From: a virus
Direction: 5' to 3' (one strand)
UHGV virus genome: UHGV-1764124
Length of the DNA stretch: 15,323 nucleotides
The position numbers and the translations under genes were made by a program. The notes beneath the pieces are model-generated. The model was not told the DNA's origin, did no database searches, and saw only the letters and a list, made by a program, of their open reading frames with translations. Below are positions 7,207 through 15,323 of this stretch, piece by piece; within the stretch, counting starts at the first letter, position 1; each line of letters begins with the position of its first letter.

Positions 7207-7504
7207 GTTTAGACCTCGATACTTTAAAAATTTGAACGACGTTACCGCGCGTTTTAATAACCGCAGCCAGCATGACAGCGTTGATAATGACCTCAGATAA
7301 ATCCACAGCCATTGGCGTACGTAACCAGATTGCATAGGCGACTCGAACAGGAATACTGGCCGCAGCAACAATCAGGAAATAAGCAAGCCATCCTCCCCAC
7401 CTTCGATGTTGAGAGCCGTTACGCCGGAATGTGACAACGCGAATTGCTATGCCAGTGCAAATAACTGCATTGGTGATAAGCAAAAAAAACTCATGCGTTA
7501 CCAT
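7196..7504 (-). CDS. Small membrane protein of the lysis cassette (holin or antiholin candidate)
   Basis: 102 aa with 2-3 hydrophobic helices; strong SD GGGGAGAA 7 nt upstream; overlaps both neighbours. Confidence 0.55.
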
Positions 7505-7895
7505 CGTCTTTTCTCCCCGGAATTAACTCGCGTGGATTATCGGAACGGTGATAGAGCCATATACCAATACGCACAGCGACAATTGCTGACACGAATGCGC
7601 CTGCAGAGAAAACAATCCCTTTTTCAAAAGAGTCCTGCGTGATGGTAGGGATCAGGCTGGCTATGCCGATAAGAATTGATGCTGCTGGTTTGTAAAAGAG
7701 AAGGCCGCAAAGAAAGCTGAGCATCGACAGGAGCACCCGGCGACGGATGGGGTACTCTACTGCAGAGGTAACAAAAATTACCGCCCCAGCCAAAGCCCCT
7801 AAAGCAACCTCCGGAGGGGCACCTGCAATAACCGCAGCAAGAGAACTAAAACTAAGCAACTGATTTAATTGCTCACTTGTTACTTGAGCAGACAT
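7491..7895 (-). CDS. Holin-like membrane protein, first gene of the lysis cassette
   Basis: 134 aa with 3-4 hydrophobic helices and a charged C-terminal tail; SD AGGAGA 5 nt upstream of the ATG. Confidence 0.55.
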   Translation of the reverse strand: MSAQVTSEQLNQLLSFSSLAAVIAGAPPEVALGALAGAVIFVTSAVEYPIRRRVLLSMLSFLCGLLFYKPAASILIGIASLIPTITQDSFEKGIVFSAGAFVSAIVAVRIGIWLYHRSDNPRELIPGRKDDGNA

Positions 7896-8176
7896 ACTTT
7901 CTCCTGTTTACTATCTATAAGCCAGTCAATTATTGATGACTAAACCCGCATAGTAAACCATATATGAATCATTATTGTTCCATATCATATATCTCAATAA
8001 AAGTACTAATGATTTTACAGAACGAGCCAGCAGAGTGGGGGCAGTTGTACAGGAACCATAGACTTAATTTTGTATTTAATAATGCTATGGTGTAATAAAC
8101 CTGAACATGTATTTAAAATACGTACTGATTCATGATAGAATTCAAAGATAACTTTTCACAAACTCCGTTTTTGATA

Positions 8177-8205
8177 CCCGCAAAATATTGCGGGCTTTTT
8201 TTTAA
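8177..8205 (+). terminator. Plus-strand-oriented rho-independent terminator overlapping the tailspike stop codon (orphan)
   Basis: Stem CCCGCAA / TTGCGGG with loop AAT(A), followed by eight T on the plus strand. On the minus strand the stem is followed by A-rich sequence, so it is a poor minus-strand terminator. Confidence 0.6.
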
Positions 8206-11200
8206 CGTTCTTCCAGAGACTGAATCCGCTCTTTTATCTTATCCATTTCTCTGCGCTGCCATGCTGCCTCGATATAGAATAAGAGATCAGGTCTGACCCC
8301 CCATCTAGATCCTGCTGGCGTTATTTCAACGCGCTCAATGATGTCTTCCATTACCATCACTGGATTATCATCCTCATCAACAATGATGCTCCCGTCATTA
8401 TCAGTCAGCGGCATTTCCCTTTGGCCAGTAATGACGTCATCATATACTGCGGGATAATCGTCATAGCAAAGAAAGGCATAGCGGCATGTTGTGCTTTCTT
8501 CTTCCATGAGTCCGTGAGAAATAAGAACATCACGAAGTTGCTGCGCGATTACACCATGATGTATCCTCGCCCCTTCTTCCCCCTTTATAGCGACAGCGTT
8601 CAGCCATTTATAAGCGATATACCTGACGTCACCCCAGGCATCCAGCAATGCTTCGTCAGGAGAGACCGGCTCTGTCTTTAATGTTCCGTCACTGGTAACC
8701 ACAGGATTGGAGCCAAGATAAACTGTCGAGAACCTGTTTCCCGGACCACCAAGAGCATTTACATTATCAAGATAAGGTTTAACATCTCCGTTCTCAAAAA
8801 GATGTTCGAGTGCGTTATATACCGCGCGACGTGGAGTACTGCTTCCGGAACCATGCAACGTTATCATTGCACCATCTGCTGAAGACGTTATTTCACCGCC
8901 GCTAACGATTAATCTCTGAGCGGTAACATCATCAGACGGTACTTTCTTCGCAATAATGGCGTAATTACCCTCAAGTTTGACTTCCGCGCGAACTTGTCCT
9001 GATGTACCTGCATGGACAGTCAGTGACTGGACGGCAACATCATCTGTGAAATCAACGGGTACAGGAACCGTCCTCACGCCTGACGTCGACATAAAAGTAG
9101 GAAGCGTTCTGTTAGGAGTGGCTCCGTAGACAAAATCCCTTGAAACAAATTCTTCCTGTTTAATTTTCACCCTGAAACAATACAAATCAGCCGGGTGACC
9201 ATCGTGAACATAAGGATATTTTCTGTTGTTATCCCCTATGCTCCATGGGTTTAGAAAGTCTTCCCCACCGAAAATGTAGTACAGCCAGTTGTCTTTGATA
9301 CAAACTGAACCAACACCAACTGCAGAGTTAACTATTCCGCCCTGATAAATCTGATCAGTAACATTAACCCACTCTACATTATCCAGACTCCACTCATTGA
9401 CGTTAACTCTGGTCATAAATGTTCTTGGATAATTTCCTGCATAACGGTTATCAGGTTCTCCTCCTTCCCACTCACCAAATGCGCGCTCACTGCCAAAAAT
9501 AATCAGCTCATCGCCAACTTTGGCAAAAGGAAGGTTTGAGTGATGAACATTATTTGGGAAGCGAAGAGAATTCCATGATGTACCTAAATCAGAGCTTCTG
9601 TGCAATGAACTACCGGGTTGAGTACTTAATGTCCCCCTGGTCGTCAGATACAGAATGCCATCATAATATTTTACACATGGCTCAGATGCATTCGCCTCAT
9701 ATTCTGCAGGTATGCGTCTGCGAACAAAGCTACCAGGAGAACCGAAAGCATCAGAGAAATAGAGTATCCCAAGCTCGCGTGGACCAATATCACCATTATG
9801 GTAGCCAACAGCAAAACTGTTATCGCTAATCGTCGCAAAACTGTGAATCTCAGTAACAGGAGTGCTTCCGTCAACAAAAGAAGGAATAGTTCCAAGACTG
9901 GTTTTTCTCCATGGTGACGAGTGAAATGATGTACCAAAACTCCAGTATCTACCCTCGTTATTCTGATCCACATCCTGGGTATTTTGCGTCGTAACTGTAA
10001 AAGTATTTTTATCAATAACAGTAGTCACCGTCATATTCCCGGTAACACCTGTAACACCAGAGTTTGAGAAGTTGACAAAATCACCAGCAAATAATCCGTG
10101 ATCAGTAATGCGAATATAAGCGACTTGCTGATTTGCTGCTTTCGTTATACCACCATAAGCGCGAAGGCTGCGACTCATTGGGCGATCCCACAACTCTGCA
10201 ACCTGCAGTTTATTTCCGCTCACGGTCCGCGTCTCAATTACAGCAAAAAGGCGATTTCTGACAACCCCCATACTCATGCAGTGATAGTTAACTGTGGGAT
10301 AGTTTTCATGTAAATCTGTAAGCCATTCCGGCGTTGTCCAGGTCTTCCCGTCATCTCCTGAGCGAACCCATGCAACATGGAGGTTATTTACACCATGGCG
10401 GTCTCCAGCCATAAAAGGCGCATAGATGACATTGTCATATACAAACGTTTTATCCTGCGTCCAGGCGTTGTACCACGGTGTATCTGTAATTTTAAATAAC
10501 TCTCCCTGGATAAAATCTTCAGAAGCATAAAAAAGAGGCTGGCCCGGTATTCTCTCAAATAAAAAACGAGCATTTTTAAATCGACTGACATCCGGAAGAG
10601 TTGATACTTTAAAAGTAAGCCCTAATCCGTCAATTTTATAACCTGGAGATGAGGCTTCAAGGCACGCGCTTATTGCAGTGGAATCGTCATTTATACCATC
10701 ACCAACAGCTCCAAAATCTTTGGGGCTAATAGCATCACGCATTTTATCCTGGAACGTTCGGTACACAGCCCCAGAACCATACTGAATAAACCAACCAAAA
10801 CCACCAACAACCCCGGCGATTGCAGCATCGACATAATTACGCATTGAGCGATTATTTACAGCGTCCTGCTCAAATGATGGATCTGCAAGGTTAGAAATTT
10901 TGTTTTGCTTTGCATCGTAATATTTTGCAAGCAAAGATGGTTTCATCAATGCACGTCTGAACCACCCAAAACATTGCTGGATCAGCATCGTCAGGTAGTC
11001 AAAGGCATCTTCATGCACTTCGGGGAAAAATTTTCCCTGATTGCGAAGGTCTGTCTCCTGCACTACATCAAGCACACGATCTATCGTAATTCGCCATCCA
11101 GTAGCAAGCGGAGACGGAAGAACCACAGAACCGCCACTATAAGTGCCCGCCCCAGTTACCGTATAACCGGTATCCAGAACCAATTCTGTTACGTTTCCGT

Positions 11201-11321
11201 TCAGGTCAGACACCTGAACAACCAGGTCTGATTTTCTGAAAATTCGAAAAGTATACGGAAACGATGTCGTAACGCCGTTACCGGTGTATTCGTTGTGGTC
11301 AACTTCGGTTGAGACCGTCAT
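8202..11321 (-). CDS. Tailspike / tail fibre with T7 gp17-like N-terminal domain, Asp-box (sialidase-like) core and C-terminal S74 chaperone domain; endosialidase-like
   Basis: 1039 aa; SD GGAGA. N-terminus resembles T7 tail fibre gp17 (KISNLADPSFEQDAVNNRSMRNY vs T7 RRIVNLANAVDDRDAVPFGQLKTM, from memory). Two Asp-boxes, SGDDGKTW (321-328) and SSDLGTSW (576-583). DFGAVGDG motif. C-terminal 160 aa with S877/K882 dyad spacing and GARIHHGVIAQQLRD. The CDS is high confidence; endosialidase specificity is about 0.5. Confidence 0.85.
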   Translation of the reverse strand: MTVSTEVDHNEYTGNGVTTSFPYTFRIFRKSDLVVQVSDLNGNVTELVLDTGYTVTGAGTYSGGSVVLPSPLATGWRITIDRVLDVVQETDLRNQGKFFPEVHEDAFDYLTMLIQQCFGWFRRALMKPSLLAKYYDAKQNKISNLADPSFEQDAVNNRSMRNYVDAAIAGVVGGFGWFIQYGSGAVYRTFQDKMRDAISPKDFGAVGDGINDDSTAISACLEASSPGYKIDGLGLTFKVSTLPDVSRFKNARFLFERIPGQPLFYASEDFIQGELFKITDTPWYNAWTQDKTFVYDNVIYAPFMAGDRHGVNNLHVAWVRSGDDGKTWTTPEWLTDLHENYPTVNYHCMSMGVVRNRLFAVIETRTVSGNKLQVAELWDRPMSRSLRAYGGITKAANQQVAYIRITDHGLFAGDFVNFSNSGVTGVTGNMTVTTVIDKNTFTVTTQNTQDVDQNNEGRYWSFGTSFHSSPWRKTSLGTIPSFVDGSTPVTEIHSFATISDNSFAVGYHNGDIGPRELGILYFSDAFGSPGSFVRRRIPAEYEANASEPCVKYYDGILYLTTRGTLSTQPGSSLHRSSDLGTSWNSLRFPNNVHHSNLPFAKVGDELIIFGSERAFGEWEGGEPDNRYAGNYPRTFMTRVNVNEWSLDNVEWVNVTDQIYQGGIVNSAVGVGSVCIKDNWLYYIFGGEDFLNPWSIGDNNRKYPYVHDGHPADLYCFRVKIKQEEFVSRDFVYGATPNRTLPTFMSTSGVRTVPVPVDFTDDVAVQSLTVHAGTSGQVRAEVKLEGNYAIIAKKVPSDDVTAQRLIVSGGEITSSADGAMITLHGSGSSTPRRAVYNALEHLFENGDVKPYLDNVNALGGPGNRFSTVYLGSNPVVTSDGTLKTEPVSPDEALLDAWGDVRYIAYKWLNAVAIKGEEGARIHHGVIAQQLRDVLISHGLMEEESTTCRYAFLCYDDYPAVYDDVITGQREMPLTDNDGSIIVDEDDNPVMVMEDIIERVEITPAGSRWGVRPDLLFYIEAAWQRREMDKIKERIQSLEER

Positions 11322-11424
11322 GTTAAATCTCCAGATAGTCGCAGCACCCGTTGCGCCGCATATCTGGTTATTCTATTACCTGGAAAACCACATATGGATA
11401 GAAAGGATGTAAATACGAATAGAT

Positions 11425-11441
11425 ATTACCTTTCAGGTAAT
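11425..11441. promoter_or_regulatory. Third copy of operator-like palindrome ATTACC-tttca-GGTAAT
   Basis: Same 6-bp arms and 5-bp spacer as 505-521, with shared flanks (ATAGAT...GGTAATTT); sits in the divergent region between the tailspike start and the LexA-box gene, just before TTGCAA (11442-11447). Confidence 0.3.
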
Positions 11442-11477
11442 TTGCAAAACGTGCTGGATAGCAAACAAATTATTTGA

Positions 11478-11497
11478 TACTGTATAAATATACAGTT
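11478..11497 (+). promoter_or_regulatory. LexA (SOS) box
   Basis: TACTGTATAAATATACAGTT matches the E. coli consensus TACTGTATATATATACAGTA at 18 of 20 positions, with a perfect CTGT-N8-ACAG core; lies 20 bp upstream of ATG 11517. Confidence 0.75.
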
Positions 11498-11516
11498 ATT
11501 GCATGGAGAAGATAAG

Positions 11517-11774
11517 ATGCAGCAGTATCACTATCCACTGGAAGACGGATTTACCGAAAGGATTCACACGCCGGGAGGCGTCAGGTCACTGGTGGAGGGA
11601 TCGCACTTGATGAAATTACTCCGGGATCTCGATAAGGATGGATTTAATGTCGATGGCCCACTTGCCGAACTGACTGCACTGATTAACTACGTCACCAGCT
11701 CACAGATGTCTATGCAGGATCTGCAAACACATCTCGACTATTGTGCCGAACAATTACGAAAACAAACCCGGTAA
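11517..11774 (+). CDS. Small LexA-box-associated protein (85 aa), function unknown; candidate SOS-induced antirepressor or moron
   Basis: ATG 11517 with SD GGAGAA (11505-11510) is preferred over the track start at 11499; opposite orientation to all flanking late genes; no transmembrane segment; no motif I recognise. Confidence 0.6.
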   Translation: MQQYHYPLEDGFTERIHTPGGVRSLVEGSHLMKLLRDLDKDGFNVDGPLAELTALINYVTSSQMSMQDLQTHLDYCAEQLRKQTR

Positions 11775-11780
11775 ATTTAA

Positions 11781-11798
11781 AGGCCGCGAAAGCGGCCT
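11781..11798. terminator. GC-rich hairpin between convergent genes (probably a minus-strand terminator, possibly bidirectional)
   Basis: Stem AGGCCGC / GCGGCCT with loop GAAA; on the minus strand it is followed by TTTAAATTTA, whereas on the plus strand no U-tract follows. Confidence 0.5.
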
Positions 11799-11817
11799 GT
11801 GACATGTCACGCTCACG

Positions 11818-11958
11818 TTATGACAAGCCTATGTACCCTGCTACACCAGATAATATCATAATAACTGCAACAGCAAATTCGCCATCGTCAATGATACATT
11901 TACGGTTCATAACGCCAAGTGCAACAAGCGCAAACACAACAAGAATAAAAGCAATCAT
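11818..11958 (-). CDS. Candidate micro-ORF encoding a 46-aa two-helix membrane peptide
   Basis: ATG with SD AAGGA 6 nt upstream, 10 nt after the stop of the 824-aa gene; product MIAFILVVFALVALGVMNRKCIIDDGEFAVAVIMILSGVAGYIGLS. Not in the ORF track (below cutoff). Confidence 0.35.
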   Translation of the reverse strand: MIAFILVVFALVALGVMNRKCIIDDGEFAVAVIMILSGVAGYIGLS

Positions 11959-11967
11959 TTCTCATCC

Positions 11968-14442
11968 TTATTGCGGAGTGACATCCTGTGGTCGCCACCA
12001 GTATGTCTGGTTAAACTCTTTCTTCGAACGTTGCTCCATTTTACGCAAATAACCTGGTGAAAAATACTCCTGCATCTGGTTAAAGATCATGTGATCGAGA
12101 GCCGCCTTCAAGTACCAGAGATTCGCACCTGGCATCAGACCTTTCCCCAGCTTAACCAGATCACCACCAGTCTGCTCACTCTTCCCTTCCACAGCATTTA
12201 ACGGTATGCCCTGAGCAATCTTCACTACGTCATCAACCAGACCAGCTACCGGGCCAAGCATCGACGCCAGCGCGCCGCTTCCGTACCTAGTGTGATCTGA
12301 CAATAAAAAGTCACCGTAAAGGCCAAGACCACCACCTTTCAGTAGAGCACCAAGCCAAAATTTAGCAGCATCTTCTCCTGTCATCTCGCGAGGATTACGA
12401 CCAGACGCAAGGTCGTTAAGTTGCTGCGACAAAGCGCCAAGAATGGTCGTACTGGCAATAAACGTCGCAATATATGCCGCACGCCCACCAGCAGACGGCA
12501 TACCCATAGCGCGTGACCAGTGACGCATAACCACCGAGATAGGGAACGATTTAAACAGGAAAACACTTCTCGTTAATTCACCTTTCCATGTTCCACGCTG
12601 AATACCAGAACCGGTTATCAGTTGCTCACGTGCTCCCGGTGTAATAACAGCCATATCAACTTCTTCAGTTACGGCACCGAGCAGTTTACGCATTGCCTCA
12701 AATTTCACGCGTTCAGGCTCACCAAGATGTTTAACTGCTGAATCAGGGATACGCATAATGCTTTCCGGTGTCAGCATCGTATTATTACCGTTCCCCCAGT
12801 CCTCCTGTTTCGCCAGCTTCCATACGCTCCAGTCTGTGTCAGTAATCCCTTTGCTTTTCAGGATACGAAAATCAGAGTCATCGAGGCTACGAAGGTCTGG
12901 TGTACGTGACACTACTTCTCCCAGGCTTCCCATCATGGTTACGCCATAGGCGCGCTTGTGCGCATCTGACCATGCTGTAAGCCCACTGGCACGCATTACC
13001 GCCGTTGCCGCCCAACGAGACACTGACGGCCCCATATTATCCATCGCCCAGCGGTTAACGCTGCCAAGTAGAGATTCCATCGCCAGACCAGCGCGGCGCG
13101 CCCGCGCAAGTTCTGTACGGTTCGTTGGGTCCATAGCTTCAAGCTGGTTGCGGAATAACTGGTTCATTGGAAGGTTGGTAACCTTCGCAGACAGATACAT
13201 GGTTCCAAGATCAGAGAACGATGACAGCAACGCGGATCCGAGTCTGCTGGCAACCAGCCAGTTGCGGATATTGTCAGACCATCGCGCGATGTGCGGATTC
13301 GCTACAGGCTGTGTCTTTCCGGAAATAAAGTTGTACAGATTCTCTGTGTTGTTCGCCAGCCGCTCGACTTTACCGGTTTTACTCGGGTTAGCTGTTGCCG
13401 TTTCTGCCTTCACCTGATCAAGAAGAGAGCGGAAAACATGATCGGGGTTTGGGCCATATGTTTCCACCAGTGCAATATCTTTACTGATACCTTCCAGGTG
13501 ACCGACCATGATTTCCCATAGAGAGCGATCGCCATAAAGTTGCTGATATTGCAGATAGGAATCTGCATCTTTGAAATGTATCTGTCGTGATGCATTACCA
13601 CGGTTAGCACGTGCGCCGGAAATTCGCATTCCGGTATCAGTAAGCTTATTCAGCCCACCAGTAGCGATCGTGTTATAAGCCTCTCCAAGAAATGAAGACA
13701 ACTCGGCATCGTTCATCAGTTGTCCATCGGCTCGGATATAATATTTGCGATCCAGCTTACCTATAACATCGCTAACCCACTTATCCTTTGATACTGCCCC
13801 AACCTTTTCCATAGAATGATGTTGAGGGATCCCCCAGTTTTCGAGATAGCCAATGTCCCCACCAGCATCATTAAACCGGCGGCGCAGCAGCTCTGTAACT
13901 TCTCTCCACGCCTTAGCACCGTTTCTTGCTTTAGCATTGCCAGTATTTTGCCCCCGCATTTCATATACCAGGTCACGTACGCCCGCTTCATCTTCAAACA
14001 GACCAAAAAAGCGAGGATCAACTGCTTCGAATGCCTCCTGCAATTGACTCAATGCATAATCACGGGTGGCTTTTGTTCTGGATTCAACAGAGAGGAAATT
14101 AGATTTACCGTCTGCATTAAAAGCTATAGTACGGTTAAGAGCGCCAAGTTTCCCATCAGCCCCTTGATAGCTATTGATAAATTTATCCAATCTCTGACGC
14201 GCGGCTATAGTGAGAGCCACACGACGTTTCTTTAATGCCGCTTCTCGCTGTAATTCTTCAGATGCCAATTGTGCTGCTCGATATAGCCGCTCTGATTCGG
14301 AAAGTTGTCTCCACGACATCGGGTCATCACGAGCAATGGAGCGCATATTTCGATAAATGCGGTCTTCAATGTTCTGTATTTCTCGCGCCGTTAACGTGCG
14401 CTGCGCCGCCTGCTGGACCGCTTGTATACATTCCTGTCTCAT
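11968..14442 (-). CDS. Large virion protein (824 aa), candidate internal core / ejection protein
   Basis: Long ORF with SD GAGAGG; helical Q/R/E-rich N-terminal part and Gly-rich C-terminal segment (KGGGLGLYGDFLL); positioned just upstream of the tailspike in the late operon. Family is unassigned. Confidence 0.75.
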   Translation of the reverse strand: MRQECIQAVQQAAQRTLTAREIQNIEDRIYRNMRSIARDDPMSWRQLSESERLYRAAQLASEELQREAALKKRRVALTIAARQRLDKFINSYQGADGKLGALNRTIAFNADGKSNFLSVESRTKATRDYALSQLQEAFEAVDPRFFGLFEDEAGVRDLVYEMRGQNTGNAKARNGAKAWREVTELLRRRFNDAGGDIGYLENWGIPQHHSMEKVGAVSKDKWVSDVIGKLDRKYYIRADGQLMNDAELSSFLGEAYNTIATGGLNKLTDTGMRISGARANRGNASRQIHFKDADSYLQYQQLYGDRSLWEIMVGHLEGISKDIALVETYGPNPDHVFRSLLDQVKAETATANPSKTGKVERLANNTENLYNFISGKTQPVANPHIARWSDNIRNWLVASRLGSALLSSFSDLGTMYLSAKVTNLPMNQLFRNQLEAMDPTNRTELARARRAGLAMESLLGSVNRWAMDNMGPSVSRWAATAVMRASGLTAWSDAHKRAYGVTMMGSLGEVVSRTPDLRSLDDSDFRILKSKGITDTDWSVWKLAKQEDWGNGNNTMLTPESIMRIPDSAVKHLGEPERVKFEAMRKLLGAVTEEVDMAVITPGAREQLITGSGIQRGTWKGELTRSVFLFKSFPISVVMRHWSRAMGMPSAGGRAAYIATFIASTTILGALSQQLNDLASGRNPREMTGEDAAKFWLGALLKGGGLGLYGDFLLSDHTRYGSGALASMLGPVAGLVDDVVKIAQGIPLNAVEGKSEQTGGDLVKLGKGLMPGANLWYLKAALDHMIFNQMQEYFSPGYLRKMEQRSKKEFNQTYWWRPQDVTPQ

Positions 14443-14447
14443 TTAAT

Positions 14448-15275
14448 TTAACCTCTCAAGAAACACGCCACAGCGACATCAAACAGGCTGGAATCCTGTA
14501 TTGCCTGCTCACTTTCCCTGTTCGCTTCATCCAGTACTTCACGCGCGCTGCGCGATTGTGGATTACCATCATCATCCAGCACGGTGATTATCATGTCCGG
14601 ATATTCAAGCAGCGAGTCTTCAGCTATACGCAGATCAATATCTCCTGCCGGATCTGCCATCATTTTTTGTTCTGTCTGTTGCAATATCTTACCGGGATCA
14701 AAAGGAGCTACTTCGTCTGGCGTCCTGACCTCTGCTGTTTTATAGAATGAAACAGCCTGAGCATTAAGTTCACTTTCTGCCTGCTGTCTCCGAGCCAGTT
14801 CTGCTCGAGCTTCAAAAAACTGACCGCCAGGCTCATGCGGTGCCAACGCGTTACGGGAAAATTCCAGGCGTTCTTGTGCCTGCCGGATTCGTTGGTCAAT
14901 ATCCCGAAGTCTGGCCTGTTTATCTGATCGAGCACGAGACAAAGCTTTACCGCTACCGGCTGGATCTTCTGCAAGAATTTGTGCGCGCTGTTCAGTGAGA
15001 TTTTCAATAATTCGTTGGCTATTAGCGATTTCAGACTGGTAAACCTGTCTATCGCCACGCGGCAAAAGCTGCGCGGCCTGTTCTTCAAGCAACCGATTTT
15101 CTATAGCGCGCGCCGTTACTCCATCATCTACAGATGACAGAGCCTCATTAACTGCCTGAGACAGCAGACTCTTGCGTCCAGGAATTTCACTGAAAGATGC
15201 AGACTCAACAATGCTGGCAACGTCTACAGGTCTCCCCTGGCTAACATCAGACATGGCTTTTCGCAGAGCCTGAAC
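14448..15275 (-). CDS. Virion-module protein, 5'-truncated at the adapter junction (at least 275 aa)
   Basis: The reading frame stays open upstream of the first Met (15254) to the adapter at 15276, and that Met has no SD, so the N-terminus is probably missing. Charged, helical, Q/R/E-rich; stop lies 5 nt before the 824-aa gene start. Confidence 0.65.
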   Translation of the reverse strand, partial: VQALRKAMSDVSQGRPVDVASIVESASFSEIPGRKSLLSQAVNEALSSVDDGVTARAIENRLLEEQAAQLLPRGDRQVYQSEIANSQRIIENLTEQRAQILAEDPAGSGKALSRARSDKQARLRDIDQRIRQAQERLEFSRNALAPHEPGGQFFEARAELARRQQAESELNAQAVSFYKTAEVRTPDEVAPFDPGKILQQTEQKMMADPAGDIDLRIAEDSLLEYPDMIITVLDDDGNPQSRSAREVLDEANRESEQAIQDSSLFDVAVACFLRG

Positions 15276-15323
15276 TGTCTCTTATACACATCTCCGAGCC
15301 CACGAGACCGAGGCTGATCTCGT
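15276..15323. other. Synthetic Illumina Nextera adapter read-through (mosaic end complement CTGTCTCTTATACACATCT, CCGAGCCCACGAGAC, 8-nt i7 index CGAGGCTG, ATCTCGT)
   Basis: Exact match to the Nextera read-2 adapter structure as I know it. Not biological sequence. Confidence 0.95.

Follow-up and report, generated by a model that had tools for sequence, protein, structure and literature searches.

We found that a small gene at positions 11517 to 11774 of viral genome UHGV-1764124 very probably belongs to a LexA-Ant-Rep lytic switch of the SPC32H type, carried by a Uetakevirus of Escherichia coli. The 15,323-nucleotide stretch analyzed is called the window here, and the gene is called ant. In the window, ant stands behind a LexA box, encodes an orthologue of SPC32H Ant, lies in a conserved gene order, and has a box that is conserved among relatives. 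The window also holds part of a Rep orthologue that lacks an S24 domain. The LexA control, the binding of Ant to Rep, and the disassembly of the Rep tetramer come from the literature on the SPC32H orthologues, and we infer by orthology that the E. coli Ant and Rep would behave like the SPC32H proteins. The switch as such is already known from SPC32H, and only the annotation gap that we describe at the end is new.

DNA searches returned only epsilon15-like Uetakevirus as close relatives of the window, for example PAS61, phiV10, TL-2011b, and ZX5. Judged by these matches, the window phage is an epsilon15-like temperate phage (Uetakevirus) of E. coli. An earlier note on this DNA had placed the gene in a slot of P22-like phages. 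However, a P22-like identity was rejected, because the DNA and protein relatives are all Uetakevirus. A rep fragment (50 to 448, plus strand), cut off by the contig end, is followed on the plus strand by genes for a YqaJ-type exonuclease, RecT, and an MT-A70 methylase, and then by the integrase gene (4530 to 5780, minus strand). An intact attP core, ATTGAGTGGGAATGATT (5971 to 5987), separates the integrase gene from those for lysis. The same core has been reported for ZX5, phiV10, and epsilon15, for which the integration site is the 3' end of guaA. Because the core is intact at this place, the gene order of the contig is that of the unintegrated form, circular or virion. At exactly position 5971, several matches of the window to E. 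coli prophages break off.

Minus-strand genes for Rz, endolysin, and holin separate the attP core from the endosialidase tailspike gene (8202 to 11321, minus strand). Beyond ant are minus-strand genes for a 46-aa membrane protein (11818 to 11958) and an 824-aa virion protein (11968 to 14442). Over the roughly 10.7 kb of the window to the right of the integrase, ant is the sole plus-strand gene, as the earlier note had seen when it described a lone plus-strand gene among minus-strand late genes. The tailspike has End_N_terminal, beta-propeller, beta-barrel, and tail-spike domains and a Peptidase_S74 chaperone (best Pfam E = 1e-233). With such a complete endosialidase tailspike, the predicted target is the K1 polysialic-acid capsule, in this case for a phage with an epsilon15-like backbone. 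Avian and human extraintestinal E. coli carry the closest prophages, and an O2:K1:H5 strain is among them.

Both ends of the window (1 to 49 and 15277 to 15323) carry remnants of Illumina Nextera adapters. The left end reads ...ATCTACAC, the index ACTGCATA, TCGTCGGCAGCGTC, and then AGATGTGTATAAGAGACAG. At the right end, CTGTCTCTTATACACATCT, CCGAGCCCACGAGAC, and the index CGAGGCTG precede ATCTCGT. Homology to E. coli genomes spans positions 50 to 15278 only. Because the adapter was left untrimmed at the contig ends, rep is truncated in the window.

The ant ORF runs on the plus strand from an ATG at 11517 to a stop codon ending at 11774 and encodes 85 residues. In a phmmer search of the PDB, Ant matched chain E, 'Anti-repressor protein', of entry 5D50 (E = 4.1e-47, 88% identity over 83 residues), with Ant residues 2 to 84 aligned to chain residues 3 to 85. 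The 5D50 entry is the crystal structure of SPC32H Ant in complex with its repressor. Ant was also 88% identical to the ant of KC911856 by tblastn, and the SPC32H record has 'ant: anti-repressor protein' in the same slot. Both phages have the order tailspike (minus), ant (plus), small membrane protein (minus), and large structural protein (minus), which also matches the annotations of epsilon15, phiV10, and PAS61. SPC32H Ant (SPC32H_020; Kim & Ryu 2013 J Virol; Kim et al. 2016 PNAS) has 86 residues. Further features common to the window and SPC32H are the divergent arrangement of ant and tailspike, a LexA box placed alike with respect to the Shine-Dalgarno sequence and ATG, a TTACC-N5-GGTAA palindrome farther upstream, and a Rep partner of the same family. 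In contrast to SPC32H, the window phage has an E. coli host, an endosialidase tailspike, and a Rep that is 42% identical overall. The orthologues epsilon15 gp19 (84% identity) and phiV10 gp24 (98%) occupy the same slot behind the same LexA box, and both are labelled 'hypothetical protein'.

Ant falls in PHROG 450 (E = 9e-48), with further PHROG matches only to 15539 and 1760, and the Pfam scan assigned it no family at E <= 0.001. This placement is why the earlier reader saw no motif in the protein and left its function open, although that function had already been solved genetically and structurally for SPC32H Ant, in the same genus. The same reader had offered the gene as a candidate antirepressor that couples induction to the SOS response without repressor autocleavage. 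This proposal is supported by the identity to SPC32H Ant, by the conservation of the LexA box, and by the type of Rep found in the window.

Positions 50 to 448 encode residues 64 to 194 of the 194 residues of Rep, corresponding to the 3' two-thirds of rep. The fragment is 98% identical to the full-length Rep of a close E. coli prophage and 38% identical to residues 66 to 198 of SPC32H Rep (tblastn, E = 1e-25). The full-length Rep of the E. coli relative matched 5D50_A, 'Repressor', at E = 4.5e-42 and matched 5D4Z, a crystallized C-terminal fragment of Rep, at E = 4.6e-20. The rep piece in the window covers the region that aligned to 5D4Z. The Pfam scan of the Rep fragment found HTH families only and no Peptidase_S24 autocleavage domain, which fits a repressor that is not cleaved by RecA. 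Rep homologues occur in 36 phage records and Ant in 35, in essentially the same set, and Rep is the presumed target of Ant in the window phage.

Ant and Rep have diverged to very different extents. Ant is 84 to 88% identical between the E. coli and Salmonella groups, whereas Rep is 42% identical overall, 52% in the N-terminal domain, and 37% in the Ant-binding C-terminal domain. Because this domain is 37% identical while Ant is 88% identical, we only infer that Ant binds Rep in the E. coli phage. The C-terminal tail of Rep (residues 151 to 198) is 42% identical and has conserved patches. The operator half-sites TTACC/GGTAA and the NLVNRW segment of Rep are the same in both groups.

The divergence of Rep speaks for a different reading of ant. 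In that reading, the strongly changed Rep of the E. coli lineage is no longer a target of its own Ant, which instead acts mainly in trans on the repressors of other resident prophages, in a crosstalk of the Gifsy type, or has been partly replaced by BRO-N/Ant-like fusions. In many relatives, a BRO-N protein with a second Ant-like domain is indeed encoded just downstream of ant. Over their C-terminal 80 or so residues, the BRO-N 'anti-repressor' proteins (PHROG 1760; ZX5 ORF4, phiV10 gp23) share about 40% identity with full-length Ant, and the C terminus of the BRO-N protein at locus L011 shows the same level of identity. Positions 177 to 225 of the 232-position PHROG 1760 profile align to Ant residues 27 to 75 (E = 4.5e-7). 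Unlike the PHROG 1760 proteins, Ant is a stand-alone C-terminal module without the BRO-N domain. The ZX5 study, the only study of an E. coli relative, assigned antirepressor activity to the BRO-N protein, whose overexpression pushed the phage toward lysis (PMC9782041).

However, the window differs from ZX5 in having no BRO-N gene, which leaves the small Ant as its sole antirepressor candidate. Ant and Rep occur together in essentially all records, ant is under strong selection, and the patches in the Rep tail have been kept. We therefore consider loss of action on the cognate Rep, or replacement by the fusions, improbable, and we favor an Ant that acts on the Rep of its own phage. The BRO-N genes of relatives lie just downstream of ant on the same strand (L011, 21674 to 22366; L003, 6766 to 7445; L014, 3074 to 3769), so they might be co-transcribed with ant from the LexA-controlled promoter. 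In phiV10, the Ant-like C-terminal part of the BRO-N protein is split by a frameshift.

Homologues of ant were found in 35 phage records from Escherichia, Salmonella, Enterobacter, and Klebsiella, and the position of ant was identical in all 10 related loci inspected. Compared with Salmonella and Enterobacter orthologues, dN/dS was about 0.06, with synonymous sites near saturation. This value indicates that ant is a real coding gene under strong purifying selection. The GC content of ant (48.4%) is close to that of the window (47.5%). A recent insertion or moron origin of ant was rejected, because the gene fills the same slot in all 10 loci and has the GC content of its surroundings. We conclude that ant is an ancestral core gene of the genus, not the inserted cargo that had been proposed.

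Variable cargo is found just downstream, between ant and the small membrane-protein gene, in relatives of the window phage. This slot lies at 20529 to 24035 in L011, 6454 to 7510 in L003, 1756 to 2818 in L006, and 1756 to 2974 in L008. In E. coli FDAARGOS_1301 it spans about 3.5 kb and contains five ORFs, and in phiV10 it contains BRO-N; Tyrion has an 'anti-repressor' there, and one Klebsiella phage has a DUF2335 protein. The extra plus-strand genes that follow ant in phiV10 and several relatives (BRO-N and others) are absent from the window, in which the slot (11775 to 11817) is empty except for a terminator hairpin.

The neighborhood of this slot, together with a product that is small, LexA-controlled, and without a Pfam family, would also suit an accessory (moron) gene that is induced by the SOS response and targets the host, such as a DinI-like RecA modulator, a division factor, or a toxin factor. 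However, such a role is very improbable for a protein with 88% identity to one that was crystallized with a phage repressor. Moreover, ant is fixed in the genus, unlike the variable cargo beside it, and its product has no similarity to DinI or to any other Pfam family.

The reading frame used here was compared with two longer ones. A start at TTG 11499 (91 aa) and a 126-aa ORF of the PAS61 type were both rejected, since the ATG at 11517 and the GGAG motif are invariant, the PDB chain aligns from this ATG, and an in-frame stop stands at 11475 to 11477 in the window. In the PAS61 annotation (L001, 6198 to 6578), this 126-aa ORF starts upstream of the LexA box.

The LexA (SOS) box, TACTGTATAAATATACAGTT, occupies positions 11478 to 11497 and differs from the consensus TACTGTATATATATACAGTA at two positions. 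No other site in the window lay within three mismatches of TACTGTATATATATACAGTA, and none of 200 dinucleotide-preserving shuffles produced one. We then scored the window with a symmetrized LexA weight matrix that was derived from 20 SOS boxes of E. coli. The box reached 27.1 bits with this matrix, compared with 9.4 bits for the next-best site in the window and 18.4 bits for the best of 300 shuffles, and it outscored the leave-one-out scores of all 20 training boxes. The box ends 19 nt before the ATG of ant, and the Shine-Dalgarno sequence GGAGA (11505 to 11509, plus strand) stands 7 nt before the ATG. The earlier description of a near-consensus box with an 18/20 match, about 20 bp before an 85-aa ORF with a good Shine-Dalgarno sequence, therefore stands, and so does the box under the weight-matrix scoring that the note had recommended.

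We aligned the tailspike-ant spacer across eight phages, whose hosts belong to four genera. The LexA box was at the same position, at a fixed distance from the Shine-Dalgarno sequence and ATG, in all eight. CTGT-N8-ACAG was present in six; the two Klebsiella phages have an ATGT left half, and the box still scores 17 bits. The CTGT/ACAG arms, the invariant GGAG, and the ATG are in register throughout, whereas the spacer within the box varies.

Over the 1049 bp compared, the GenBank records of SPC32H and SPC32N are identical except for two bases. One is a C-to-A change in SPC32N; it converts the right arm of the orthologous box from ACAG to AAAG and lowers the matrix score from 25.7 to 18.4 bits. 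This single change is reported to cause constitutive Ant synthesis and to send SPC32N into lytic growth. The box in the window matches the SPC32H box that is mutated in SPC32N column for column. The other difference, also a single substitution (G to A), falls within the tailspike gene at its 5' end (L012 position 184, compared with L004). The chance that the palindrome is not a LexA site but a random product of AT-rich intergenic DNA (36% GC), which readily yields palindromes, or the operator of a phage-encoded regulator, like the second conserved palindrome of the Rep-operator type nearby, is close to negligible, because no shuffle reached 27 bits, the arms are conserved around a variable spacer, and the natural SPC32N mutation falls in the ACAG arm.

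A putative promoter of ant spans positions 11455 to 11483 on the plus strand. It consists of a -35-like TGGATA (11455 to 11460), a 17-bp spacer, and an extended -10 element, TGaTACTGT (11475 to 11483). In the eight-phage alignment, CTGGA, TG, and TA-TGT are invariant, and the conserved extended -10 reads TGnTACTGT. Read from this conservation, the -10 hexamer of ant would be formed by the left arm of the LexA box. A simple sigma-70 consensus scan, however, gave no plus-strand call in the region before ant.

A GC-rich hairpin (11781 to 11798), detected by a terminator scan, begins 7 nt after the ant stop codon. Its folding energy is -17.9 kcal/mol on the plus strand and -13.8 kcal/mol on the minus strand (z = -4.3 and -3.3), and the orthologous stem-loop is annotated as a terminator in the epsilon15 record. 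The T-run is on the minus-strand side, so the hairpin mainly ends the incoming virion-gene transcript. The tailspike and lysis genes would then probably depend on a separate promoter within the 195-bp spacer between ant and the tailspike gene. Two conserved blocks, ATTCTATTACC and AACC..ATATG.AT, lie in this spacer at 11368 to 11400. On the minus strand, the ATTCTATTACC block reads GGTAATAGAAT. This sequence overlaps a Rep half-site and includes a good -10 (TAGAAT), which lies some 45 nt ahead of the tailspike start. A canonical -35 is absent at this minus-strand block. The GGTAATAGAAT block may serve as the promoter of the tailspike and lysis genes or as a site for an activator.

Four copies of the palindrome TTACC-N5-GGTAA, one of them with 1 mismatch, are present in the window, compared with 0.28 copies expected. 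Two of these Rep-operator-type palindromes, at 506 to 520 and 568 to 582, lie just downstream of rep, and the equivalent positions in epsilon15 are annotated as repressor-binding sites. A third, at 5823 to 5837, lies between the integrase gene and attP. The fourth, TTACCTTTCAGGTAA (11426 to 11440), lies 38 bp upstream of the LexA box and is conserved in all eight aligned phages; the epsilon15 record labels the orthologous site 'repressor, lysogeny'. The palindrome also clusters around rep in the E. coli relative and in SPC32H, including the SPC32H rep-cro spacer. Based on the predicted operator TTACCTTTCAGGTAA, ant or the divergent tailspike-lysis promoter may also be under Rep control.

We suggest the following scenario for the switch. 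In the lysogen, host LexA bound to the SOS box would silence ant; this box probably overlaps the ant promoter at its -10 region and start site. Rep, which would not be cleavable through RecA, would hold the early operators (TTACC-N5-GGTAA). Upon DNA damage, activated RecA would trigger the self-cleavage of LexA, and ant would be transcribed. Ant would then bind the C-terminal domain of Rep and break up the DNA-bound Rep tetramer. Rep would be released from its operators, and the prophage would enter lytic growth.

Several of these steps have been described for SPC32H or a close relative. SPC32H Ant is described as disassembling the Rep tetramer through the Rep C-terminal domain. PMC7380047, citing Kim & Ryu 2013, states that the LexA-controlled Ant inhibits the repressor via protein-protein interaction, and PMC9986798 assigns the interaction with Ant to the C-terminal tetramerization domain of Rep. 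The ZX5 lysogen is induced by mitomycin C (PMC9782041). The Ant of ZX5 is 100% identical to that of the window, and its Rep is 98.5% identical to the full-length Rep of the E. coli relative.

More speculative is a double lock on ant, with LexA at the SOS box and Rep at 11426 to 11440, where Rep would damp ant, the divergent tailspike-lysis promoter, or both, and with it an Ant that cross-induces other Uetakevirus prophages; we regard this extension as unlikely. With such a lock, the first Ant made after LexA cleavage would remove Rep and thereby boost its own transcription, which would make induction a commitment step with positive feedback. In the related possibility, Ant, which has changed far less than Rep, would inactivate the diverged Reps of other Uetakevirus prophages.

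Comparable arrangements are found in other temperate phages. In the ImmI region of P22, also a temperate podovirus, an antirepressor gene likewise lies among the late genes beside the tailspike gene. However, P22 Ant is large and is controlled by Mnt and Arc instead of LexA, and the P22 c2 repressor is RecA-cleavable. The Pfam scan detected no similarity of Ant to P22 Ant, and no arc- or mnt-like ORF is present in the intergenic region of the window, where the ORFs do not exceed 42 aa. According to PMC7380047, P22 ant mutants remain SOS-inducible.

The antirepressors of phage 186 (Tum) and of the Gifsy and Fels prophages follow the same logic as ant, that of a small LexA-repressed antirepressor that disables a non-cleavable repressor through protein-protein contact (Shearwin 1998; Lemire 2011, PMC3121763). 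They belong to other phage types and occupy other genome positions than ant in the window. Tum has a DinI-like C-terminal part. Pfam and PHROG scans detected no relation of Ant to Tum or to the Gifsy antirepressors.

The ant locus is present in 529 of 5426 complete E. coli genomes (about 10%). We sampled 8 of the 529, and all annotated rows among them carry the label 'hypothetical protein', as does ant in the E. coli phage records inspected. The ZX5 study likewise left the small Ant 'hypothetical' and tested the BRO-N protein (ORF4) as the anti-repressor (PMC9782041). The prophages concerned include those of the phiV10 type, with an O-acetyltransferase that modifies the O157 antigen, and K1-capsule-specific ones like that of the window. 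Correct naming of ant would tell how such widespread prophages respond, by induction, to DNA-damaging antibiotics.
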